A stretch of 64,000 nucleotides of DNA from a virus (IMGVR_UViG_3300034418_007369:1-64000); one strand, 5' to 3'. Positions 3,452 to 43,682 are shown, counted from the first letter of the stretch. Notes: a model not told the origin generated them from the letters alone. Numbers and translations: made by a program.

Positions 3452-4357
3452 ATGTATAACTTATGCTGCATCAGCAACGAACTCAAAGAGCAAGGCTACT
3501 CTTTCAAGACTATGACTTGGAAGCAGTTTAACAAGATTCGCGACACAGAAGGTGAGGAGCGCGCTCTGTTCCTGCTAGGCGAGCGTTGGTTCAACAATGT
3601 CGTTGTGACCTTAGAGTGCATCGAGCATTGTGCCAGAGAAGGTTGGGGATACCGTGTGTCGTCAGCATTATTTCCATGTTTGACACACCCAGAGTTTCAC
3701 TACAATGTTTCAGATGTGCCGCAGTACGACGAAATCATGGAACTATTCGAGGAGTGTAGAGCGAACGATGCGTGGCAGGTCAGACTGTCTACACATCCAG
3801 ATCAATTCAACGTGCTTGCCAGCGAGAATCAAGATGCCGTTGACAAGACCATCGCAGAACTCAACCATCACGGTTGGGTTATGGATCAGCTAGGTTGTCA
3901 GCGTAATTACTACAATCCCATAAACATTCATGTCAACTGTACCAAGGGCGATCTCAAAGATATTGCTGCTCGCTTTATGTCCAACCTAAACAAGTGCGAT
4001 TGCAGCGTGACCAGCAGGCTAGTGATTGAGAATGAGGACAAAGGTTGCTGGACTGTTGCTAATTTGCTAGAGCATTTTGACATTCCAATCACTTACGATA
4101 ACTTACACGACAAGTGCAACCCTTCTCAGTTACCATGTCGCGTTCATCCAGCGTGGGGTATGTCTAGTTGTGCTGCTACATGGGGTAGCGTCAAGCCTCT
4201 GTTTCACTACAGCGAGTCACATCCTGACAAGACTAATCCTCGTAGTCACGCAGATATGCCTGTTGACAAACCGTGTAGCGAGCAGTATGATTGGGACATA
4301 GAACTTAAATCCAAGGACGCAGCGATTCGTGCCTGTGCCGCATTAGTAGGAGTTTGA
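3452..4357 (+). CDS. uvsE: UV DNA damage endonuclease (UvsE/UvdE)
   Basis: YRVSS.LFP, RLSTHPDQF.VL, INIH, RLVIENED, D.LH, HYSES and SHAD..ELKSKD.A motifs. Confidence 0.9.
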   Translation: MYNLCCISNELKEQGYSFKTMTWKQFNKIRDTEGEERALFLLGERWFNNVVVTLECIEHCAREGWGYRVSSALFPCLTHPEFHYNVSDVPQYDEIMELFEECRANDAWQVRLSTHPDQFNVLASENQDAVDKTIAELNHHGWVMDQLGCQRNYYNPINIHVNCTKGDLKDIAARFMSNLNKCDCSVTSRLVIENEDKGCWTVANLLEHFDIPITYDNLHDKCNPSQLPCRVHPAWGMSSCAATWGSVKPLFHYSESHPDKTNPRSHADMPVDKPCSEQYDWDIELKSKDAAIRACAALVGV

Positions 4358-4982: not shown

Positions 4983-5133
4983 ACAAGAATTATTATTAGA
5001 GAGAACAATCGCACTATCAAAGGTGGAAGAATACTGTAAAGCACACCTGTTCAGATGTCCAGCGTCAGCATCGCAAGCATCAATGAAATCTATGGCACTC
5101 ACCATTCTTGAAATGATAGAGGGCAAACGATGA
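4972..5133 (+). CDS. 53-aa hypothetical protein
   Basis: Fills the gap and overlaps both neighbours. Confidence 0.5.
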   Translation: MKSEQELLLERTIALSKVEEYCKAHLFRCPASASQASMKSMALTILEMIEGKR

Positions 5134-8473: not shown

Positions 8474-8728
8474 ATGGCTAGATCAAGAGACAGTAGAGCA
8501 AGGCATGAAACCGGAAAGACGATTACTTCTAAATCACAGTTCGGAAGTCACGCTGAAATGGTTGTAGATCATACTCAATATGGATTAACTTTAGAAGATG
8601 GGCAGGTTTTATTACAAGATGGTGGTCATTTTTATGTGACTAAATCTAATCGCCTAGATGATGGAACTGCCGACCCAGCGAGATATAGTGGTAAAAAACT
8701 ATACCTAGAGTCTGGCGGTGACTTATGA
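8474..8728 (+). CDS. Hypothetical protein
   Basis: GGAGG RBS. Confidence 0.7.
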   Translation: MARSRDSRARHETGKTITSKSQFGSHAEMVVDHTQYGLTLEDGQVLLQDGGHFYVTKSNRLDDGTADPARYSGKKLYLESGGDL

Positions 8729-9090
8729 AATTCGTATACATACTAGAAATGATGATTCAAACTATTGATGGGGTTTTGAACGAGCCTATTGGTGTTTTCA
8801 CGGACGAAAAGGATGCAGACAAATGGCTAAAAGAATGTAAAGAATGTTTTAGCAATAAAACAACTGCGTTCAGTATTCTTCCAATAGAAATGGACATAAA
8901 GCCACCCCTGCTAGAAATGACTTCAGAAATTTCTGAAAAAAATATTGGACATCAGCTTGCAGAACTCTATAATCAAGATATATTTGAGCAGATGATCGAG
9001 CCTGACGGTAGTTTTTCTTATCAAATAAAAGATAAATACAAGTCCTCTATGGAAAAAGCTATGAGCAGGAAGTTTAAAAGAGGTAAATAA
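8725..9090 (+). CDS. Hypothetical protein
   Basis: ATGA overlap with the upstream gene. Confidence 0.65.
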   Translation: MKFVYILEMMIQTIDGVLNEPIGVFTDEKDADKWLKECKECFSNKTTAFSILPIEMDIKPPLLEMTSEISEKNIGHQLAELYNQDIFEQMIEPDGSFSYQIKDKYKSSMEKAMSRKFKRGK

Positions 9091-9321
9091 GCATGTATAA
9101 AGGTCTTATGGATGTTGTAGAGGACGGCGGGGCAGTACCGCCCACCTCCACTTACGGGGGTGAAATAGATTCGACTCACAATATGAAGTAACGTATCTCA
9201 TGCCGTAGTTGATAGAAGGGCTACGTTAAAAATCTATCAACATTTTAATTGCAGATGAAAGTCTCGCATTGGCAGCGTAAGCTGTCTGGGGTTTGCCAGT
9301 ACCTTATAGCCCAAACTGGCT
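9088..9321 (+). ncRNA. ssrA: Circularly permuted (two-piece) tmRNA, tag ADESLALAA
   Basis: Acceptor piece GGAC-GGCGG-GGCAGTA-CCGCC-CACCTCCA ends at 9150, ahead of the 5' piece GGGGGTGAAATAGATTCGAC starting at 9156. G3-U70 pair present. pk1 CGTAG/CTACG plus TTGATAGA/TCTATCAA. Resume context TTAATT-GCA; tag ORF 9251-9280. Outer boundaries are approximate. Confidence 0.9.
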
Positions 9322-9324
9322 TTC

Positions 9325-9397
9325 GGCCTCATCGTCTAATCGGTTAGGACACCGCCCTTTCACGGCGGCAATCGGGATTCGAGTTCCCGTGAGGTCA
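9325..9397 (+). tRNA. tRNA-Glu(TTC)
   Basis: Acceptor stem GGCCTCA/TGAGGTC, anticodon arm CCGCC-CTTTCAC-GGCGG, T-arm CGGGA-TTCGAGT-TCCCG; no encoded CCA. Confidence 0.93.
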
Positions 9398-9416
9398 TAC
9401 TAATAAGGAGGAAAAA

Positions 9417-10948: not shown

Positions 10949-10956
10949 TGTGTATA
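10949..10956 (+). promoter_or_regulatory. Class B motif TGTGTATA ahead of the DUF1501 operon
   Basis: Intergenic, 28 nt before ATG 10984. Confidence 0.55.
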
Positions 10957-10983
10957 TTGTATAGTCCTAAATGGAGTATACAA

Positions 10984-11265
10984 ATGAAACAAAAAGAATT
11001 TAACAAGCTATTTTATACATACAGCAAGAATCAGCTCGAAGAAGATAAGGCTTGGGATACATATTTGAAATTTTATAATATTTGTAAAAATGGAGACAAG
11101 GACACAATAGACTATCTGGAAAAGATAGGGTCTATGAATAAAAAACAGATGTTAGAATGGAGAACTAGGCTGGCGGAAATGGGTATGGAACTCACGCCAG
11201 ACCAAGTGGAAGATTATATTTTCGTGCTTTCTTTAGCAATTTTGAGAAATTGGGGTAGCCTATAA
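10984..11265 (+). CDS. Hypothetical protein
   Basis: GGAG RBS before ATG 10984. Confidence 0.65.
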   Translation: MKQKEFNKLFYTYSKNQLEEDKAWDTYLKFYNICKNGDKDTIDYLEKIGSMNKKQMLEWRTRLAEMGMELTPDQVEDYIFVLSLAILRNWGSL

Positions 11266-12539
11266 TGTTTAATCACGTTCATATTGGTCGCAGGGCTTTC
11301 CTGCAAACAAGTTTATTCGCCGCTGCTGGCACTCAGTTCGCTTTTGGCGAGCAAAAACACTACGAAAGTATTGAAGGTACAGCAAAAAGCGTTATTTTTA
11401 TATACCTCCCCGGAGGTATCTCTGCTCAAGAGTCTTTTGATCCCAAGACGGTGGCCCCTCTTGAATACAGAGGATCTATGCAGGCTATCAATACCAATGT
11501 CGCTGGAATCCAAATCAACGAGAGGCTTCCTAAAACGGCTCAGGTTATGGATAAATTAACAATTATTCGCAGCATGACCCACGGCGAAGCGGCGCATGAA
11601 AGAGGCACAAACAGCGTTTTTACAGGATATAAACCGAGTCCAGCCCTTCAATATCCATCAATGGGATCTGTTGTATCCCATGAGTTTGGGGATCGTAACA
11701 ATATTCCTAGTTATATCTGCTTGCCAGAAAGACCGAACGAGTTTGCCGGTACGGGCTATTTAAGTAATGCGTATGCTCCATTTGCTCTAGGTTCCGATCC
11801 CGCTTCTGACAATTTTAGAGTTAGAGATTTATCTATCAATATTACAGATGAGCATTTTTCCAGAAGAAGAAATCTTTTAGATATTGTAAATAAAAATCTA
11901 AATGATAGAACTAATGCTGACACTGTTGCTGCTATGAATAAGTTTTACGAGAAGGCTTATGATTTAGTTGGCAGTCAGCACGCTAGGGACGCTTTTGATC
12001 TTGAAAAAGAAGATGCAAAAGTGCGTGATCGCTATGGTAGAAATACCGCTGGCGCAAGAATGTTAATGTCAAGAAGATTAGTTGAAGCCGGAGCTAGGTT
12101 TGTGACGATGACTTATGGTGGATGGGATATGCACCAAGACATATTTGGTGGAATAAACAATCAAATACCACCATTCGACCAAGCGTTTTCCGTTCTTATC
12201 CAAGACCTTACAGAAAGAGGATTATTAGATTCGACACTTGTTTGCGTTATTTCAGAATTTGGAAGAACGCCAAAGATCAATAAAGACGCAGGACGCGACC
12301 ACTGGCCTAAAGTATTTAGCTCGGTTCTTGCTGGTGGTGGTATCAAGGGTGGAATGACTTACGGAACAACAGATGCTACTGGTACAGAGCCAGAAGATAG
12401 CCCCGTAACAATTCCCCATTGGGCAACTACAATTTATCACCAAATGGGAATCAATGCAGATAAAGAACTCATGGCTCCCGGCGACAGACCTATTGAAATC
12501 GTAGACTTTGGTGAGGTTATTCAGGATATTATTGCATGA
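11265..12539 (+). CDS. DUF1501 family protein with Tat-type signal
   Basis: GRRAFL, AKSVIFIYLPGG.S..ESFDPK, GWDMH, SEFGRTPKIN..AGRDHWP. Confidence 0.9.
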   Translation: MFNHVHIGRRAFLQTSLFAAAGTQFAFGEQKHYESIEGTAKSVIFIYLPGGISAQESFDPKTVAPLEYRGSMQAINTNVAGIQINERLPKTAQVMDKLTIIRSMTHGEAAHERGTNSVFTGYKPSPALQYPSMGSVVSHEFGDRNNIPSYICLPERPNEFAGTGYLSNAYAPFALGSDPASDNFRVRDLSINITDEHFSRRRNLLDIVNKNLNDRTNADTVAAMNKFYEKAYDLVGSQHARDAFDLEKEDAKVRDRYGRNTAGARMLMSRRLVEAGARFVTMTYGGWDMHQDIFGGINNQIPPFDQAFSVLIQDLTERGLLDSTLVCVISEFGRTPKINKDAGRDHWPKVFSSVLAGGGIKGGMTYGTTDATGTEPEDSPVTIPHWATTIYHQMGINADKELMAPGDRPIEIVDFGEVIQDIIA

Positions 12540-13768
12540 TAAACAGAAGGCATTTTATAGAACACGTTGGAGGGTTGGCCTCATTTTCAGCCGCCTCATC
12601 ATTATTTGGTCAAAACATTCTTGACAATCAGGACGATCTAATTAAGAATGAAAAGGCCGCTATTCTTATATGGCTTGGTGGTGGCCCTCCGACTATTGAT
12701 ATGTGGGACTTGAAAACAGGCGCTACTGGCGGCGAATCAAGACCTATTAGCACGAAAGGCGACTTTCAAATAAACGAACTCATGCCATCGCTGGCTAATC
12801 TTGGACAAGACTTCTCCTTGGTTAGAACGATGATGACAAGAGAGGCAGACCACATGCGCGGATCATACTATATGCACACAGGATTTAAACCAAATCCAAA
12901 TATGGTGCATCCGTCTATTGGTTCTGTTGTTTCCTATGAGCTTTCTCAAGGACGAGATTACCTAGAAATACCGCCATTCTTTTCTGTTAATACGGGAAGT
13001 CTAGGTGGTGGATTCCTTGGAGCGTCTTGGAATCCCTTTGTTGTAAGTTCTAATGGTCAGGTCAGAAACCTTGGAGATAAGGTAGATAACCAAAGACTCA
13101 TGGCACTTGCGGCCATTGAAACCGGATTCACAAAAAGAACAAACAGTGATATGGCAAAATATCATCAACAAATGATTGAAAAAACAATTTTGACCAATAC
13201 CTCGCCCCAGATGAAGGCGTTAAAACCTACTGACGAACCTCAAAATGTCATTGACGCTTATGGCGATACGGCATTTGGAAGGAGCGCGCTGATGGCAAGA
13301 AGATTGATTCAGCGTGGAGTTCCTTTTGTAGAGGTCGGCTTTGGGGGTTGGGACTTGCATCAAAACACTCACGAAACCCTATCAACAAAACTTCCAGAAG
13401 TAGACAAGGTTGTTTCTAGTCTGATATTGGACTTAAAACGTCTTGACATGTGGGATAATGTTGCTATAGTTATGATGGGTGAGTTTGGTAGAACGCCAAG
13501 GATCAACCAGAACGCTGGACGAGATCATTGGGCAAAGATTTGGTCGGCATTTGTTTCAGGTGGACTGCTTAAAGGAGGTCAAGTTGTTGGTTCCTCGTCG
13601 TCAGACGGAACAGAAATAGAAAGCGGAGAGCCATATTCAGCAGAAGATATAATGATGACAGTGTGCCATTCATTAGGTATCGACACAGAAAAAAGCTATA
13701 CTGCTAAAAATGGTCGCCCAATGAGAATAGCTAACAATGGTAAAATTATTAAGGATTTAGTATTATGA
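12536..13768 (+). CDS. DUF1501 family protein with Tat-type signal (second paralog)
   Basis: NRRHF, IWLGGGP..IDMWDLK, GWDLH, GEFGRTPRIN..AGRDHW. Confidence 0.9.
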   Translation: MINRRHFIEHVGGLASFSAASSLFGQNILDNQDDLIKNEKAAILIWLGGGPPTIDMWDLKTGATGGESRPISTKGDFQINELMPSLANLGQDFSLVRTMMTREADHMRGSYYMHTGFKPNPNMVHPSIGSVVSYELSQGRDYLEIPPFFSVNTGSLGGGFLGASWNPFVVSSNGQVRNLGDKVDNQRLMALAAIETGFTKRTNSDMAKYHQQMIEKTILTNTSPQMKALKPTDEPQNVIDAYGDTAFGRSALMARRLIQRGVPFVEVGFGGWDLHQNTHETLSTKLPEVDKVVSSLILDLKRLDMWDNVAIVMMGEFGRTPRINQNAGRDHWAKIWSAFVSGGLLKGGQVVGSSSSDGTEIESGEPYSAEDIMMTVCHSLGIDTEKSYTAKNGRPMRIANNGKIIKDLVL

Positions 13769-14130
13769 GAAATTTAATCTTGACAGTTTTGTTTTTAACA
13801 TCTACAATCGCGTTGGCAGACGATAAGAAACCACAAAGACCACAAAGGCCGCAGGTAGAACACGGTGAGCGCGCGCATCACCCGCCACCACATGTTCGCG
13901 GCTCAGAGCATCATGGCGCTAAACAGTATCACAGACCGCTATATCATCAATACTACAGCAGAAATCCCGTTGGATACAGACCGCATATTCAATGGCTACC
14001 AAATGGATTCAGCTTAAATATTGGACGAACTGCGGTAAGTCCAGATCGTCGTCATGTAAGATTTGGTATTAGCGCCGGATTTTATGGTCGCGCCCCGTTT
14101 ACTCCCTACTATCATAGACATCATAGATAA
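13765..14130 (+). CDS. Secreted His/Arg/Pro-rich protein with a secretin-like motif
   Basis: Signal peptide ending ALA; GYRP.I.WLP.G.SL...AVSPDRRHVR. Confidence 0.6.
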   Translation: MRNLILTVLFLTSTIALADDKKPQRPQRPQVEHGERAHHPPPHVRGSEHHGAKQYHRPLYHQYYSRNPVGYRPHIQWLPNGFSLNIGRTAVSPDRRHVRFGISAGFYGRAPFTPYYHRHHR

Positions 14131-14801
14131 TGAATATTATATCAAAGATAAACAAATCTTTAGCAGAAAGAATAGATAAGGCTGTTTATACGGACAATCC
14201 ACAAACTTGGAAAGTTTCTAAGTCTATAACGATTGACTGGAAAAACATTTTACCAGAGCCTCCGAAAAATAATTCTCAAGAAACTAAAAAAGAATTAGGC
14301 TATCTGGCGGAAATCACCGATAATCTTAGTATATCTGATAAAAATTTGGTATCTTTGGTTGACAACGAGCCGCTTGACTTGTATAATGATATACTCAGGC
14401 GGCACGGTTTAAAGATGCCAAGAGATGAATTTAAAAAGGTTTGGGACATATCCTTGCCAATTATTATGAATCTCAAGCATCAGTTTAATAGGCCAAGACC
14501 AGAGCAACTGGCCAAGTTCTACGGTTTGACGATAAATGTTATAGAGACAAAGACTCATCAAACCCCAGCTTATCCATCTGGTCATACGGCTTATGCCGCG
14601 ATGGGCGCATATCTTTTGTCGGATATGTACCCAGAACATTCTGGAGAATTTTTCTCAAAGGTTGGCGATGCTGGTCATGCTCGCTGCCTACAGGGCGTTC
14701 ACTACCCGTCAGATAATGAAGCGTCAATGGTTATCACTGGCGCTATCTGGCAAGATATTAGATATAAAATGTTTCCAGAGCTGAAACCATATAAAATTTA
14801 A
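14130..14801 (+). CDS. PAP2-superfamily phosphatase
   Basis: KxxxxRPRP, YPSGH and R...GVHYPSD catalytic motifs. Confidence 0.88.
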   Translation: MNIISKINKSLAERIDKAVYTDNPQTWKVSKSITIDWKNILPEPPKNNSQETKKELGYLAEITDNLSISDKNLVSLVDNEPLDLYNDILRRHGLKMPRDEFKKVWDISLPIIMNLKHQFNRPRPEQLAKFYGLTINVIETKTHQTPAYPSGHTAYAAMGAYLLSDMYPEHSGEFFSKVGDAGHARCLQGVHYPSDNEASMVITGAIWQDIRYKMFPELKPYKI

Positions 14802-38813: not shown

Positions 38814-39695
38814 GTGTCGCAGTTGATAGACCTAAAAAAAGACTTTGATTTGGGGAATAAATTTTTACTAGACGTAGCGTCAGAGCTATCTAACACTCTA
38901 GATGATAGTTATAGGGTTGTTATTAAGTATGATCTACAAGATTACAATATTCCAAAAGACGACAAGAAAAATATACTTTTTGCGCTGTCTAGAGAAACAC
39001 ATGAACTACCAAGATACACAGAAGACGAAAGGATTTTTCTTACGTTTCATAACTATGCTCCTTTAGACGCTTGGGGACATCCGATAAATCATCCGAAAGT
39101 TGTGCCGCTGCCGCTTGGATTCTTTATAAATGATATGACCTCCAAGGTTGAAGAAATAAAGCCTCACGAAGATAGAGAATATGACTTCTGTTTCGTTGGA
39201 CAGATACCGCATACCGGAACAAGAGATAAGTTTAAAAGATGTTTAGACAATATGCTAGAGCGCATAGGAAATAAATACAAATACTACGTCAAATATACTG
39301 AGTCTTTTGGTTGCGGCTTAGATCATCAAGAATATATTGACTTATTAAACAACTCAAAAATTTGCCTATGTCCGACTGGGGCATATAGTGATGAGTCTTT
39401 TAGATTTTTTGAATCTATAGCTATGGGGGCGTTCCCTATGGTTGAAATGCTGCCAAGGTTTTGGTATTATGAACAGGCACCAATGTTTTTCGCTAAATGG
39501 CAATTCTTAGATAGCTTTCTAGAAAATTCTTTAAATTTTTTACGATCTGAAAATAAAAGAGTTGCACTTGAACAAATTGTAAACTACAATAATACAATAT
39601 TGAATACTGTCACCCTTTCTGGATTTTTGAAAAAGATAATTGATGAACAGCAAATACATACCAATAAATTGCAAGACCCACTTCAGTCTCCTTAA
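38814..39695 (+). CDS. Exostosin/GT47-like glycosyltransferase
   Basis: FVGQ and Y..LL.NSKICLCP.G...ESFRFFE....G. Confidence 0.7.
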   Translation: MSQLIDLKKDFDLGNKFLLDVASELSNTLDDSYRVVIKYDLQDYNIPKDDKKNILFALSRETHELPRYTEDERIFLTFHNYAPLDAWGHPINHPKVVPLPLGFFINDMTSKVEEIKPHEDREYDFCFVGQIPHTGTRDKFKRCLDNMLERIGNKYKYYVKYTESFGCGLDHQEYIDLLNNSKICLCPTGAYSDESFRFFESIAMGAFPMVEMLPRFWYYEQAPMFFAKWQFLDSFLENSLNFLRSENKRVALEQIVNYNNTILNTVTLSGFLKKIIDEQQIHTNKLQDPLQSP

Positions 39696-41235
39696 AGGAT
39701 TCTCTAATCCCGATAGACTAGCGAAACTGTGCGCTTCATATAACTATGGGGCGTGCGTTCTTGCTGATGTCAACACTCTTTCTGGCGCCGTGAACTTTCA
39801 TCAGGCGTGTACGAAGAATGGCGTCAAGCCAATACTAGGACTAGACACAGAGCAATTCCTCCTAATTGCAAAGAATAAAGCTGGATGGCTAGACCTTATT
39901 AAATATTCTTCAGAAGAACAAGATATTGACACTCTGAAAAGAATAGCTGATAATGGCAACATTTTGTTTATAACAACAGAAGATAGTCCAGCCCAAAAGA
40001 AAATGTGGGGAAAGAATTATTTTTGTTATGATTATATTTCTGATGCGGTGTATTATTGCACCAAAGAAGAAGCAGAGCTACATAGAATCATTCTGTGTTC
40101 TGGGATGAAAACCAGCATTCCGAAAGTTACGGCAAAGCTGCAAAAGGGAGAAGATTTTGAAAACAAACACTTCTTTACAAGTGAAGATTATTGCTTAAAG
40201 CCGACAAGCAGAGTCACAGGTAATAAAAAATTATTTGACGCACTCGCTTCGTGCGAAGAGTATGAAATCACCGGAAAGCCAATGCTGCCAGAGTTTGATG
40301 TGCCTGAAGGGTTTGATAGTGATGAGTATCTTAAAGAGCTTTGTCGGCATGGTTGGAAATCTAAACTCGCCCCCGCTGGCAAAGTGTCCGACCCAAAACA
40401 GAAAGAAATCTATCTGCAAAGAGTAAAGACTGAGCTTGAAGTTATCTTTAAGGCTAATCTTAGTGGTTATTTTTTGATCGTGCAAGATATTGTCAATTAT
40501 GTTAAAAATCGTGGCTGGATCGCTGGTCCCGGTCGAGGATCTGCTGCCGGGTGTTTGATCTCTTATTTAGTTGGAATCACAGAAGTTGATCCAATTGAAT
40601 TTGACTTACTCTTTGAGAGATTTTATAACGAGGGACGGAATACGGAAGATCACGTCTCGCTTCCAGATGTTGATATGGATGTTCCCGCAGAACATCGAGA
40701 CGAAGTAATTGACTACATTAAAGAAAAGTATGGAATTGATAAGGTCTCCCAGATGGTAACATTTGGTAAACTACAAGGTCGCGCGGCGATCAAAGAAGTT
40801 TTAAGAATCAATGATGCTGTATCTTTTTCTGAAATGAACGCTATTACAGATAGTATTCCAGATGAAGCTAAAATTTCTGACCAGCTAGAACTCATGGAAG
40901 ATAAGTCTATTATCAGATGGGCGCTAGAAAACGAATCAGAAGCGCTAAAGAGCTGGTGCTATTATGATGAAGAAGGAAACTTAGAAGGACCGCTATCAAG
41001 ATATTTTGAACAAGCTATTAAAATTGAAGGAACAAATAAATCTCAGGGCAAACATGCTGCCGGTGTAATTATATCTAAACATCCACTAGCAGAGGTTTGT
41101 CCAATGGTTAAAGACAAGAATGGTAAAATGATTGCCGCGCTTGAGATGAATGACCTAGAGGCTATGGGTCATGTTAAGTTTGATGTTCTTGGAATTGACT
41201 TGTTAAGTAAAATTATGGAAATATGTGAGGATTAA
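39643..41235 (+). CDS. dnaE: DNA polymerase III alpha, N-terminal half (degenerate PHP, palm, thumb)
   Basis: THFSLL, YFLIV.D, GPGRGSAAG, LLFERF, PDVDMD, HAAGVII and KFDVLG, then a stop. Confidence 0.92.
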   Translation: MNSKYIPINCKTHFSLLKGFSNPDRLAKLCASYNYGACVLADVNTLSGAVNFHQACTKNGVKPILGLDTEQFLLIAKNKAGWLDLIKYSSEEQDIDTLKRIADNGNILFITTEDSPAQKKMWGKNYFCYDYISDAVYYCTKEEAELHRIILCSGMKTSIPKVTAKLQKGEDFENKHFFTSEDYCLKPTSRVTGNKKLFDALASCEEYEITGKPMLPEFDVPEGFDSDEYLKELCRHGWKSKLAPAGKVSDPKQKEIYLQRVKTELEVIFKANLSGYFLIVQDIVNYVKNRGWIAGPGRGSAAGCLISYLVGITEVDPIEFDLLFERFYNEGRNTEDHVSLPDVDMDVPAEHRDEVIDYIKEKYGIDKVSQMVTFGKLQGRAAIKEVLRINDAVSFSEMNAITDSIPDEAKISDQLELMEDKSIIRWALENESEALKSWCYYDEEGNLEGPLSRYFEQAIKIEGTNKSQGKHAAGVIISKHPLAEVCPMVKDKNGKMIAALEMNDLEAMGHVKFDVLGIDLLSKIMEICED

Positions 41236-41451
41236 ATGAATGCTACAAAAGAAGAATATATGTCTGTGATTTTTTCTGGTTGCAGTATTGACTATAAAGA
41301 TATTACATTTTGTAATTTGGCTAATCACTATAGAAGATTGGCAAGATCAAATGAATATCAAGTATGGTCAGACAGACAAAACGAATATCACCTATTTAAA
41401 AATATCGAAGATGCTGTTGATAAGTTTATTGAACTAAAGAAAAGGAAGTAA
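41236..41451 (+). CDS. Small hypothetical protein inside the split dnaE locus
   Basis: GAGGA RBS, 71 aa. Confidence 0.65.
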   Translation: MNATKEEYMSVIFSGCSIDYKDITFCNLANHYRRLARSNEYQVWSDRQNEYHLFKNIEDAVDKFIELKKRK

Positions 41452-41452
41452 C

Positions 41453-42148
41453 ATGGCGAACTATAGAGATATTATTGTTTTTGACTTTGAGACCGGCGGC
41501 GCTAATCCATATACGTGTCAGCCAACTCAAATCGCGGCTGTGGCTATCCACGCTAGAAAGCTAGAGCTACAGCCCGGAGGCGTGTTTAACAGCGAGATTC
41601 GCCCTATTATCGACGACGATGAGGCCATTAAAGCGGGAGTCGGCCCGTTGGAGGAAGAGGCTCTGCGGGTAACGCGCAAAAACCGTGACGACCTAGCAAA
41701 AGCACCTTTGCCCAAAACAGTATGGAAAAAGTTTGCTCAGTTTTGCGACAAATATAATTTTAAGAAAACTAATTATTATGCACCTATCGCTGCTGGCTAT
41801 AATATCAATGGCTTTGATATGCCTATTGTGGAGAGAATGTGTCAACAATATGGTCCAACTCATGCAAAGAATGGCAGGCAGGGAATCTTTAACCCTATTT
41901 TTACCATTGATGTAATGCAACATATTTACTGCTGGTTTGAAAACAATACAGAAGTAAAGGGATATGGTATGGATTACTTGCGCGACTATTTTGGAATGAG
42001 TCAGGCTAGTAAGGATAATGCTCACGATGCGTTGCAAGACGTTAAGGATACCGCTAATATCATGATTAAGTTCATGAAATTGCAAAGAACATTGCTACAT
42101 AAAGTTAAATTTGAAAAAACATTTGCGAACGGGGATATTTATGTCTAA
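41453..42148 (+). CDS. DEDDh 3'-5' exonuclease (DnaQ/epsilon-like)
   Basis: FDFETG, GYN..FD and HDALQD. Confidence 0.88.
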   Translation: MANYRDIIVFDFETGGANPYTCQPTQIAAVAIHARKLELQPGGVFNSEIRPIIDDDEAIKAGVGPLEEEALRVTRKNRDDLAKAPLPKTVWKKFAQFCDKYNFKKTNYYAPIAAGYNINGFDMPIVERMCQQYGPTHAKNGRQGIFNPIFTIDVMQHIYCWFENNTEVKGYGMDYLRDYFGMSQASKDNAHDALQDVKDTANIMIKFMKLQRTLLHKVKFEKTFANGDIYV

Positions 42149-43682
42149 ATTTGACATTAATAATTTTGAAGATGAAGAAGTTTGGGATTTGATTTGCGAA
42201 GGACGCACAAAGGGCGTTTTTCAACTTGAGTCTAGCCTTGGTAAGCATTGGGCTAAAGAAGTCAAACCCAGAAGCATCAGTGAATTAGCGGCTCTTATTT
42301 CGTTGATTCGTCCCGGCTGTTTGAAGGCTTACACAGATGGTAAATCCATGACACAGCACTATGCGGATAGAAAAAAGGGAACTGATGCTGTTGATTACCC
42401 AGATGATTCTTTGGAGCCTATTCTAAAAGGAACCTATGGTGTTTTGGTATACCAAGAGCAAAGCATGAAAATCGCCCAGCAACTAGCTGGGTTTGACCTT
42501 AAAGAAGCTGATTCGCTTCGTAAGGCTATTGGTAAAAAGAAAGCTGAACTCATGGAAGAAATGAAACAGGTCTTTATGGATGGCGCCGAAAAGCAGGGGA
42601 TTATCAAGAAGGAAGTGGCGGGAGAGATTTTTTCATGGATCGAGAAGTCTAACCGCTACGCCTTCAACAAAAGTCACGCTGTTTCATATGCTATTGATGC
42701 ATACTGGAGCGCGTACTGTAAATGTCATAGATTAGAGAGGTTTTACGTGAGTTACATGAATCGCTCTGACCGTAAGCCAAAGCCTGAGATTGAGCTAAAA
42801 CAGCTTATCATGGATGCTAAGATGCATGGGCTAGACACCTATCCGCCAAGGCTTAATCACATGCACACAAATTTTCTACATGAGAATGGTAAAATTTATT
42901 TTGGTATGAGGCACATTAAAAATGTAGGCACGAAAGAGTGTGATAAAATTGAAGAATTAAAACAAACAGAAGATTTGTCTTTGTTTACTTGGATGGATTG
43001 TCTTATCAAGATTGTTCACCGTACCAAGATCAACAAGCGAGCGGCAATTGCTATGATTTCTGTTGGTGCGTTTAATGGCAAGAACAATAGAGAGTCTCGC
43101 CAGAAAATGCTGTATGAATATGATAGCTGGAATAATCTTTCTGCAAGAGAAAAAGATGCCATCGCTGATAATTACAAAAGTAATTTAACTTTGGCTCAGT
43201 GTGTAGACCTGCTATCAGACTGGGTTAAGATTAATTCTAGAAGGGCGCAAGCGATAGAGGACATCAAGCAGTCTCTCATTTCGCCATTCTATAGCCTAGA
43301 TGACGATCCCGCCTCTATTGCAGATTATGAAATTAAATTAATGGGGTGTGCCTTGACATGCAGTAAGGCAGATTCTATAAATATTTCTACAAATATGTGC
43401 AAAGATGTGACACAGGGTACTATAAGAGGTAAGGTAAATCTTTCTGTGATGATTAATTCTATCCGTACCTATAAAACTAAAAAGGGAAAGAATCCCGGCC
43501 AAGAGATGGCTTTTTTGTGTATTGAAGACGCGAGCGGCGAACTGGATTCCGTTACAATTTTTCCAGAAGCATTTATAAAATATAAAGATTTATTGATAGA
43601 AAGAAACACTGTCTTCATAGATGGTGAGGTTTCTAAGAGGGATAAAAATTCCATCGTTGTTAATAAAGTTATACAAGTTTGA
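42141..43682 (+). CDS. dnaE: DNA polymerase III alpha, C-terminal half (fingers, HhH, OB)
   Basis: GVFQLES, LIRPG, TYGVLVYQEQ, LRKAIGKKK, YAFNKSHA and MAF..IED.SG. Confidence 0.92.
   Translation: MSKFDINNFEDEEVWDLICEGRTKGVFQLESSLGKHWAKEVKPRSISELAALISLIRPGCLKAYTDGKSMTQHYADRKKGTDAVDYPDDSLEPILKGTYGVLVYQEQSMKIAQQLAGFDLKEADSLRKAIGKKKAELMEEMKQVFMDGAEKQGIIKKEVAGEIFSWIEKSNRYAFNKSHAVSYAIDAYWSAYCKCHRLERFYVSYMNRSDRKPKPEIELKQLIMDAKMHGLDTYPPRLNHMHTNFLHENGKIYFGMRHIKNVGTKECDKIEELKQTEDLSLFTWMDCLIKIVHRTKINKRAAIAMISVGAFNGKNNRESRQKMLYEYDSWNNLSAREKDAIADNYKSNLTLAQCVDLLSDWVKINSRRAQAIEDIKQSLISPFYSLDDDPASIADYEIKLMGCALTCSKADSINISTNMCKDVTQGTIRGKVNLSVMINSIRTYKTKKGKNPGQEMAFLCIEDASGELDSVTIFPEAFIKYKDLLIERNTVFIDGEVSKRDKNSIVVNKVIQV

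Follow-up and report, generated by a model that had tools for sequence, protein, structure and literature searches.

A circularly permuted tmRNA gene with a five-base spacer in an uncultured aquatic phage

Introduction

Bases 9091-9324 of a viral genome fragment are arranged as a tmRNA (ssrA) gene in which the acceptor half comes before the coding half, with only five bases between the two. The acceptor stem would thus be closed by a tiny loop, and no CCA end is encoded. Is this a working gene of the phage, and could such an RNA be matured into two pieces, one of them chargeable with alanine?

The sequence belongs to virus record IMGVR_UViG_3300034418_007369 (IMG/VR), which is 80,291 bases long and ~52% complete according to CheckV. 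The window analyzed here is the 64,000-nucleotide stretch formed by bases 1-64000 of that record. DNA of this stretch is present in freshwater, estuary, marine, and wetland metagenomes. Genes for ribonucleotide reductase, ThyX, dCMP deaminase, and a DnaB-like helicase are present, together with two genes that jointly specify a DnaE-type polymerase, and the nearest cultured phage shares only ~30% identity with the polymerase. The split polymerase lies at window positions 39640-43682, where the two parts correspond to PHROG 405 positions 246-612 and 623-1068 and an ORF (41453-42148) sits between them.

Gene identity and structure

ARAGORN calls a permuted tmRNA at 9058-9371, with the tag ADESLALAA*, and tRNA-Glu(ttc) at 9325-9397. 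The Rfam model RF04321 (tmRNA_permuted) matches 9091-9280 over its full length (model positions 1-213 of 213) with 93.5 bits against a cut-off of 47 (E 8.5e-17), and a search of the whole record reproduces this result. Both programs thus return the permuted form that the first-pass annotation of this DNA had proposed. The alphaproteobacterial model RF01849 (alpha_tmRNA) gives a marginal 55 bits against a cut-off of 50, and its match is limited to model positions 40-278 of 355. In a BLASTN comparison with cultured phages, the tmRNA region was matched solely via its tRNA-Glu part.

The outer limits given by ARAGORN (9058 and 9371) are implausible, as they run into an ORF and the tRNA. Judged by conservation among relatives, the gene occupies ~9091-9324 (~234 bases): conservation begins at ~9089-9091, right behind the stop codon of the ORF at 8725-9090, and ends with the hairpin GCCAGU/ACUGGC (9295-9320). 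As far as sequence comparison can establish it, the identity of 9091-9324 as a phage two-piece tmRNA is well supported.

All elements lie on the + strand, in permuted order: the T arm and acceptor 3' strand (9126-9150), then the acceptor 5' strand (9156-9162), then the tag (9251-9280). The acceptor piece (9091-9150), which would form the 3' part of the mature tmRNA, is defined by the Rfam alignment, the sequence itself, and conservation in relatives. It comprises the 3'-side strands of P2, a GGAC, the T arm (9126-9142; stem GGCGG at 9126-9130, loop GGCAGTA, or GGCAGUA in the RNA, at 9131-9137, and CCGCC at 9138-9142), the acceptor 3' strand CACCTCC (CACCUCC, 9143-9149), and the discriminator A9150 (A73), with no encoded CCA. 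The spacer CTTAC (CUUAC, 9151-9155) is predicted from sequence, Rfam, and the fold to be removed. The coding piece (9156-9324) is supported by Rfam, the fold, and covariation. It opens with the acceptor 5' strand GGGGGUG (9156-9162; G1 is 9156 and G3 is 9158) and includes the D-loop-like segment AAAUAGAUUCGAC, identified on the same three grounds, and the 5'-side strands of P2, of which CAUGC (9199-9203) pairs with GCAUG (9091-9095). The remainder of the piece consists of pseudoknot PK1 (9204-9240), the tag frame, and two hairpins.

The tag frame called by ARAGORN (9251-9280; GCA GAT GAA AGT CTC GCA TTG GCA GCG TAA) has PK1 upstream, starts at an Ala resume codon, and specifies the 9-residue tag ADESLALAA*, ending in LALAA. 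Its stop codon is placed by fold and covariation in the loop of a P5-like hairpin (GGCAGC-GUAA-GCUGUC, 9271-9286). The 3'-terminal hairpin (9288-9320), supported by covariation, pairs GCCAGU at 9295-9300 with ACUGGC at 9315-9320. A small 3' pseudoknot between GGG (9289-9291) and CCC (9310-9312) is a suggestion only, with no covariation (0/3 pairs).

The minimum-free-energy fold of 9091-9324 contains P2, the T arm, and an acceptor stem closed by a 6-base loop made of A9150 and CUUAC. The 7-bp acceptor stem carries the alanine identity elements, namely, G3-U70 (G9158-U9147) and the A73 discriminator. The T-loop GGCAGUA (9131-9137) and GAAAUAGAUUCGAC (9162-9175) are of the type seen in the alpha_tmRNA consensus, which reads GGCgGUA and AAuAGGAUCGAC at these places. 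Every sequence feature named at first pass had been read correctly: the acceptor half first, CTTAC at 9151-9155 and then GGGGGTG, no CCA after A9150, intact P2 pairings (GCATG/CATGC and ATGTTGT/ACAATAT) and pk1, which covariation supports, the G3-U70 determinant, and the tag ADESLALAA, which ARAGORN gives as well. The first-pass statement that a GGCRGTA T-loop is typical of the alphaproteobacterial form likewise agrees with the alpha_tmRNA consensus.

The adjoining tRNA-Glu (UUC, 9325-9397), also recognized earlier, is found by both ARAGORN and the Rfam tRNA model (58.9 bits) and begins 4 bases past the last hairpin of the tmRNA. At window positions 9395-9400 its discriminator is followed by TAC, and CCA is not encoded here either. 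A tRNA-Glu without encoded CCA fits a host that adds CCA post-transcriptionally.

Homologues and selection

Homologues were gathered in two ways, by a pattern scan of viral contigs and by an Rfam search of whole records of thyX-related phages. Regular expressions that matched the T arm and acceptor strictly overlooked most family members, and the Rfam whole-record search was used instead. A permuted tmRNA above the Rfam cut-off is present in 15 of 49 phage records related by ThyX (63-88% identity). For counts of covariation, 14 homologues were aligned with the spacer removed and the helices were defined on the window's sequence.

Pairing is maintained throughout the tRNA-like domain and P2, where every aligned cell is canonical: 98/98 in the acceptor helix, with two-sided change at 4/7 pairs, 70/70 in the T arm helix, where all pairs (5/5) show compensatory change on both sides, 70/70 in P2a (two-sided change at 3/5 pairs), and 42/42 in the inner P2 helix, P2d (3/3 pairs). 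PK1 stem 1 has 67/70 canonical cells and two-sided change at 4/5 pairs; for stem 2 the counts are 89/98 and 4/7. The 3' hairpin (77/84 canonical) has changed on both sides at 2/6 pairs, including A-U to C-G and U-A to C-G, and the stop-codon hairpin at 9271-9286 (71/84) at 2 pairs. G3-U70 is invariant in 14/14 homologues, while the pairs adjacent to it covary. Contigs from two metatranscriptome runs contain a further example, 9144 A>G co-occurring with 9161 T>C, which turns an acceptor pair from A-U to G-C. The tags of relatives (AEETLALAA, ANESLALAA, AEPCLALAA, and AKPSFALAA) vary and keep the ...ALAA end throughout. Compensatory changes occur in every main helix and G3-U70 does not vary, from which we conclude that selection maintains the gene as a tmRNA. 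Judged on these alignments, covariation and tag pattern together are the signature of a selected tmRNA and not of a decaying fragment.

We put the probability at about 0.8 that 9091-9324, in an uncultured aquatic phage, is a working tmRNA gene of the circularly permuted kind, the product of which matures into two pieces and tags nascent chains with the help of host factors. The first-pass annotation had described a phage ribosome-rescue RNA with a tiny acceptor-stem loop that must be cut and given CCA. The permuted tmRNA and its loop stand, on the basis of model scores and covariation in 14 homologues; cutting, CCA addition, and tagging are predictions.

A selected tmRNA need not serve the phage by tagging. 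SmpB (PF01668) was not found in the whole record, which extends to all 80,291 bases the absence noted earlier for the window, nor in five relatives that carry the tmRNA, of which one is 94% complete. The RNA therefore probably relies on host SmpB, although the rest of the genome, with the record ~52% complete, may still carry an smpB. As no SmpB turned up in the record or in these relatives, the processed RNA could act mainly as a competitor or decoy that titrates host SmpB, AlaRS, or EF-Tu against host trans-translation. Such a role has been proposed for the TLD-only RNA of mycobacteriophage DS6A, a phage molecule recorded as an inhibitor of tmRNA (PMC4131195, PMC11915505), and the two-piece format would be foreign if the host is not an alphaproteobacterium. 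We regard this as improbable. The mRNA-like part is complete and selected, as judged from PK1 covariation and the resume-codon context UAAUUGCA, and all 14 homologues have an open 9-codon frame with the ...ALAA end and a stop codon in a conserved hairpin. A decoy would have no need of a selected mRNA-like domain.

Short spacers in phage and cellular genes

The identical CTTAC spacer occurs in this phage and in L324/L027, L325, L326/L100, L329, and L334/L088. Within the clade, spacers measure 5 bases in five further records, 12-19 in five, and 33, 89, 123, and 174 in four. Across 14 family members, the encoding of CCA tracks spacer length, as it is absent in 10/10 with spacers of 5-19 bases and present in 4/4 with spacers of 33-174 bases. 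At least L332 and L328 show a leader-trailer stem in their spacers (GAAGCACAC...GUGUGUUUC). The L332 spacer (123 bases) also contains GAGGTTCAAATCCTC, a T-arm-like hairpin that may be a tRNA remnant.

Comparable spacers were sought in a prokaryote census of one genome per species, in which an alpha-type T arm and acceptor had to be followed by GGGGNNGAAA within 8 bases. This returned at least 120 stretches, at least 102 of them with the GGCRGUA T-loop and almost all from Alphaproteobacteria. Among the matches listed, spacers include CCAC (in at least three genomes, from Xanthobacteraceae), CCAAC or CCAAT, and others of up to 8 bases, i.e., 4-8 bases with the CCA included. At least three short-spacer cellular genes have no CCA at all (L156, L172, and L127), and the six short-spacer cellular genes that we checked score 238-309 bits on alpha_tmRNA. 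Because some cellular genes leave only one or two bases between CCA and G1, we infer from their sequences that such tiny acceptor-stem loops are opened in vivo.

Among viruses, the pattern scan of contigs recovered spacers of 5, 6, 8, 10, 11 ... 29 bases, the short ones confirmed by Rfam. An exact search for the CUUAC junction (query CCTCCACTTACGGGGG) led to L346, a beta-type phage tmRNA with the identical CCA-less spacer. Matches to CCTCCACTTACGGGGG in L350, L351, and L352 fall by chance inside coding sequence and have no T arm. In L347, within an array of 17 tRNAs (~3800-3960, - strand), a T arm (UUCAG-UUCGACU-CUGAA) is followed by the acceptor strand CUCCUCC-A, CUUAC, and GGGGGAG. ARAGORN does not report a tmRNA at this element, nor does Rfam (E <= 0.001); it may be a divergent permuted tmRNA or an element consisting of the tRNA-like domain only.

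A literature search on spacer lengths of permuted tmRNAs found nothing explicit. By the comparisons above, a 5-base spacer without CCA is within the natural range and not unusual. The rarity implied at first pass is thus not borne out: spacers of 4-8 bases are widespread in alphaproteobacterial genes and occur in other viral contigs, and phage two-piece tmRNAs have been published (PMC9004378). Detection is a separate matter, as ARAGORN gave no call on five full-length short-spacer permuted genes (L088, L089, L086, L093, and L115) that score 75-120 bits on RF04321. We dropped it as a census tool because it missed these Rfam-confirmed genes.

The series of spacers also speaks to whether the loop is cut at all. 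A one-piece RNA with a closed acceptor stem, such as a non-aminoacylated regulatory RNA or a tRNA mimic, is conceivable given so short a spacer, and the recurrence of the same CUUAC in the unrelated phage tmRNA of L346 and in the TLD-like element of L347 could hint at a role of its own. We consider this very improbable. Relatives with the same flanking structure have spacers of 12 to 174 bases, some with CCA and the leader-trailer stem typical of excised segments, and the invariant G3-U70 and A73 are relevant only to a free, chargeable 3' end. Equally short spacers occur in cellular genes, and the two-piece tmRNA of Caulobacter is reported to be functional (Keiler et al. 2000, in the form in which PMC9004378 cites it). 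It is scarcely credible that the locus is a non-functional passenger, i.e., a decaying host ssrA copy or a fragment left by imprecise excision or recombination, for although tmRNA genes are frequent integration sites, ssrA fragments are often found in phages (PMC9004378), and the alpha_tmRNA score is low (55 bits versus 238-309 for cellular genes), the gene is complete and recurs, with spacers from 5 to 174 bases, in at least 15 records of related phages, and its helices are all maintained by compensatory change and none is disrupted. No integrase context is needed as an explanation. The gene is located in tRNA arrays, as are other phage RNA genes that are expressed.

Predicted transcription and maturation

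We return to the reading of the locus as a functional two-piece tmRNA. A tRNA lies within about four bases 3' of the tmRNA in this phage and in L325, L326, L329, and L338; at that offset it is Glu in this phage and Asn in L100/L326. In relatives without a downstream tRNA, the 3' hairpin is followed by a U run, resembling an intrinsic terminator. Many relatives have the tmRNA within a tRNA array, where 16-33 bases separate it from the tRNAs upstream. The simplest interpretation is that the tmRNA is co-transcribed with tRNAs and released by tRNA-processing enzymes.

A sigma-70-like promoter match (TGGACA-16-TATAAT, 11/12) at 8946-8973, inside the ORF at 8725-9090 on the + strand, is a possible start for a transcript of tmRNA and tRNA-Glu. 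The region holds no more promoter-like sites than shuffled sequence, and this one is therefore a candidate at most. A GTGTATAWTA motif that a relative's contig carries immediately upstream of its tmRNA was also considered; it is not enriched in the window.

Six metatranscriptome runs contain 29-57% of the stretch's sampled words. In the four of these runs that we examined, RNA-library contigs cover 9089-9320 and 9089-9371, bridging both the spacer and the junction between tmRNA and tRNA. These contigs indicate presence only and are silent on mature ends because they are assembled and the libraries may contain DNA; their continuity across both sites is compatible with a precursor as well as with contaminating DNA. 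In three RNA runs the flanking ORFs have no contig cover, which carries no evidential weight.

The proposed pathway would begin with transcription of the tmRNA jointly with the adjoining tRNA-Glu or, in relatives, within tRNA arrays. Host RNase P, cutting 5' of G9156, would open the acceptor-stem loop, and a second RNase P cut 5' of the tRNA, at 9324/9325, would define the coding piece at its 3' end. The five trailer bases past A9150 could be trimmed by RNase Z or by 3' exonucleases, and CCA would be supplied by the host CCA-adding enzyme. The predicted products are two RNAs of ~63 and ~169 bases, joined through the acceptor stem and P2. Once charged with alanine by host AlaRS, the complex would be delivered to stalled ribosomes by host SmpB and EF-Tu. 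Nascent chains would then be tagged with ADESLALAA for proteolysis, and ribosomes would stay available during infection. This mechanism of cutting and CCA addition is drawn by analogy, the precedent being the cellular short-spacer tmRNA genes.

T-loop forms and the host

Canonical UUCGAUU T-loops with a UGG D-loop-like segment occur in the sister-phage homologues L327, L332, and L335. The T-loop and the D-loop-like segment (9131-9137 and 9163-9175 in the window) switch jointly: UUCGAUU goes with UGG in 3/3 cases, and GGCAG-type loops go with UAG or CAG (YAG) in the other 10. This is covariation of a tertiary contact within one phage clade. The genes of L327 (1455-1696, - strand) and L334 (1501-1735, + strand) are nearly identical in the 3' domain and downstream flank and differ in their tRNA-like modules, with T-loops UUCGAUU and GGCAGUA and spacers of 13 and 5 bases, respectively. 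The mosaic, as seen in the two sequences, suggests recombination between tmRNA modules. Because both T-loop types occur in one phage family, the form of the T-loop is a poor marker of the host.

The sole basis for a planctomycete-like host is a pair of DUF1501 genes at 10949-14801. For the DUF1501 protein encoded at 11265-12539 of the window, the nearest Atlas clusters (score 0.98) are mostly Planctomycetota. This similarity is a weak hint and the only one to the host that we saw. If the guess is right, the tmRNA format is mismatched to the host, because the 2025 tmRNA database (PMC11915505) has 1914 standard tmRNAs and 1 permuted tmRNA for Planctomycetota. One scenario, which we hold to be possible but rather unlikely, is that the host has a one-piece tmRNA (Planctomycetota being a candidate) and that the phage's foreign, stripped-down two-piece tmRNA uses host SmpB. 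The clade would then exchange tRNA-like modules such that T/D-loop sets and spacers of 5-174 bases are interchangeable in one host range.

Relation to known two-piece tmRNAs

Phage two-piece tmRNAs are already known, and the features that looked exceptional in this gene are ordinary, because both such tmRNAs and tiny spacers are common. The locus has calibration value in this respect: a 5-base spacer without CCA looks striking alone but lies in the natural range, and aquatic viromes commonly contain phage two-piece tmRNAs. Beyond this, the clade offers a natural series of spacers (5, 12-19, 33, and 89-174 bases) in which only the long ones include CCA. T-loop and D-loop sets of the alpha and the canonical type alternate among otherwise homologous phage tmRNAs, a warning not to read the host of a phage from the form of its tmRNA. 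There is also a blind spot in annotation, as ARAGORN missed most of the short-spacer permuted genes that RF04321 finds.

The reference system is the two-piece tmRNA of Alphaproteobacteria, described from Caulobacter (Keiler et al. 2000, as cited in PMC11915505 and PMC9004378). The phage gene resembles this type (RF01849) in having the acceptor half ahead of the coding half, a GGCRGUA T-loop, an AAUAG D-loop-like segment, G3-U70, A73, and PK1 ahead of the tag, and very short spacers are found in the cellular genes too. Unlike cellular alpha tmRNAs, it scores 55 rather than 238-309 bits, is shorter (~234 bases), is phage-encoded, adjoins a tRNA, and has as its 3' domain a small hairpin, possibly with a pseudoknot. 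The terminal regions specific to the alpha model (positions 1-39 and 279-355), which we take to be the helix tying the two pieces together in cellular alpha tmRNAs, have no counterpart here or in L027, L100, and other family members, whereas other viral and cellular genes match alpha_tmRNA from 1 to 355, end to end. We therefore class the gene as a permuted tmRNA (RF04321) whose tRNA domain is alpha-like, rather than as a typical member of alpha_tmRNA.

Among phages, Buchholz et al. (PMC9004378) described two-piece ssrA in marine myophages, namely, the OM43 phage Melnitz and pelagimyophages, and counted 53 two-piece genes among 133 unique phage tmRNAs, mostly from aquatic settings. RF04321 stems from the 2025 tmRNA database, which has 79 phage sequences (PMC11915505). 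Our gene shares with Melnitz and the pelagimyophages a phage-borne, alpha-type permuted ssrA, an aquatic setting, no reported phage smpB, and a format that may be foreign to the host's own tmRNA (PMC9004378). It differs in belonging to another phage lineage (split DnaE-type polymerase, ~30% identity to cultured phages) and in its much shorter spacer without CCA. In addition, Rfam detected no glutamine riboswitch in the window beside the tmRNA, unlike in the Melnitz arrangement. An echo of that arrangement is seen in L115, where a glutamine riboswitch aptamer (RF01739, 59 bits; 5002-5050, - strand) lies ~1.2 kb from a short-spacer alpha-type tmRNA.

Viral contig L346 (2578-2871, - strand) shares the CUUAC spacer without CCA, and a tRNA-Gly follows its tmRNA with no base in between. 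In contrast to our gene, it is a beta_tmRNA (RF01850, 103 bits) with a UUCGAUU T-loop, another P2, and the tag ANDYDLAIAA, from a different and unrelated phage. The TLD-only RNA of mycobacteriophage DS6A (PMC4131195, PMC11915505) is likewise phage-encoded, related to tmRNA, and dependent on host SmpB. It has no tag frame and is thought to inhibit host tmRNA, whereas in the gene described here the mRNA-like domain is complete and selected.
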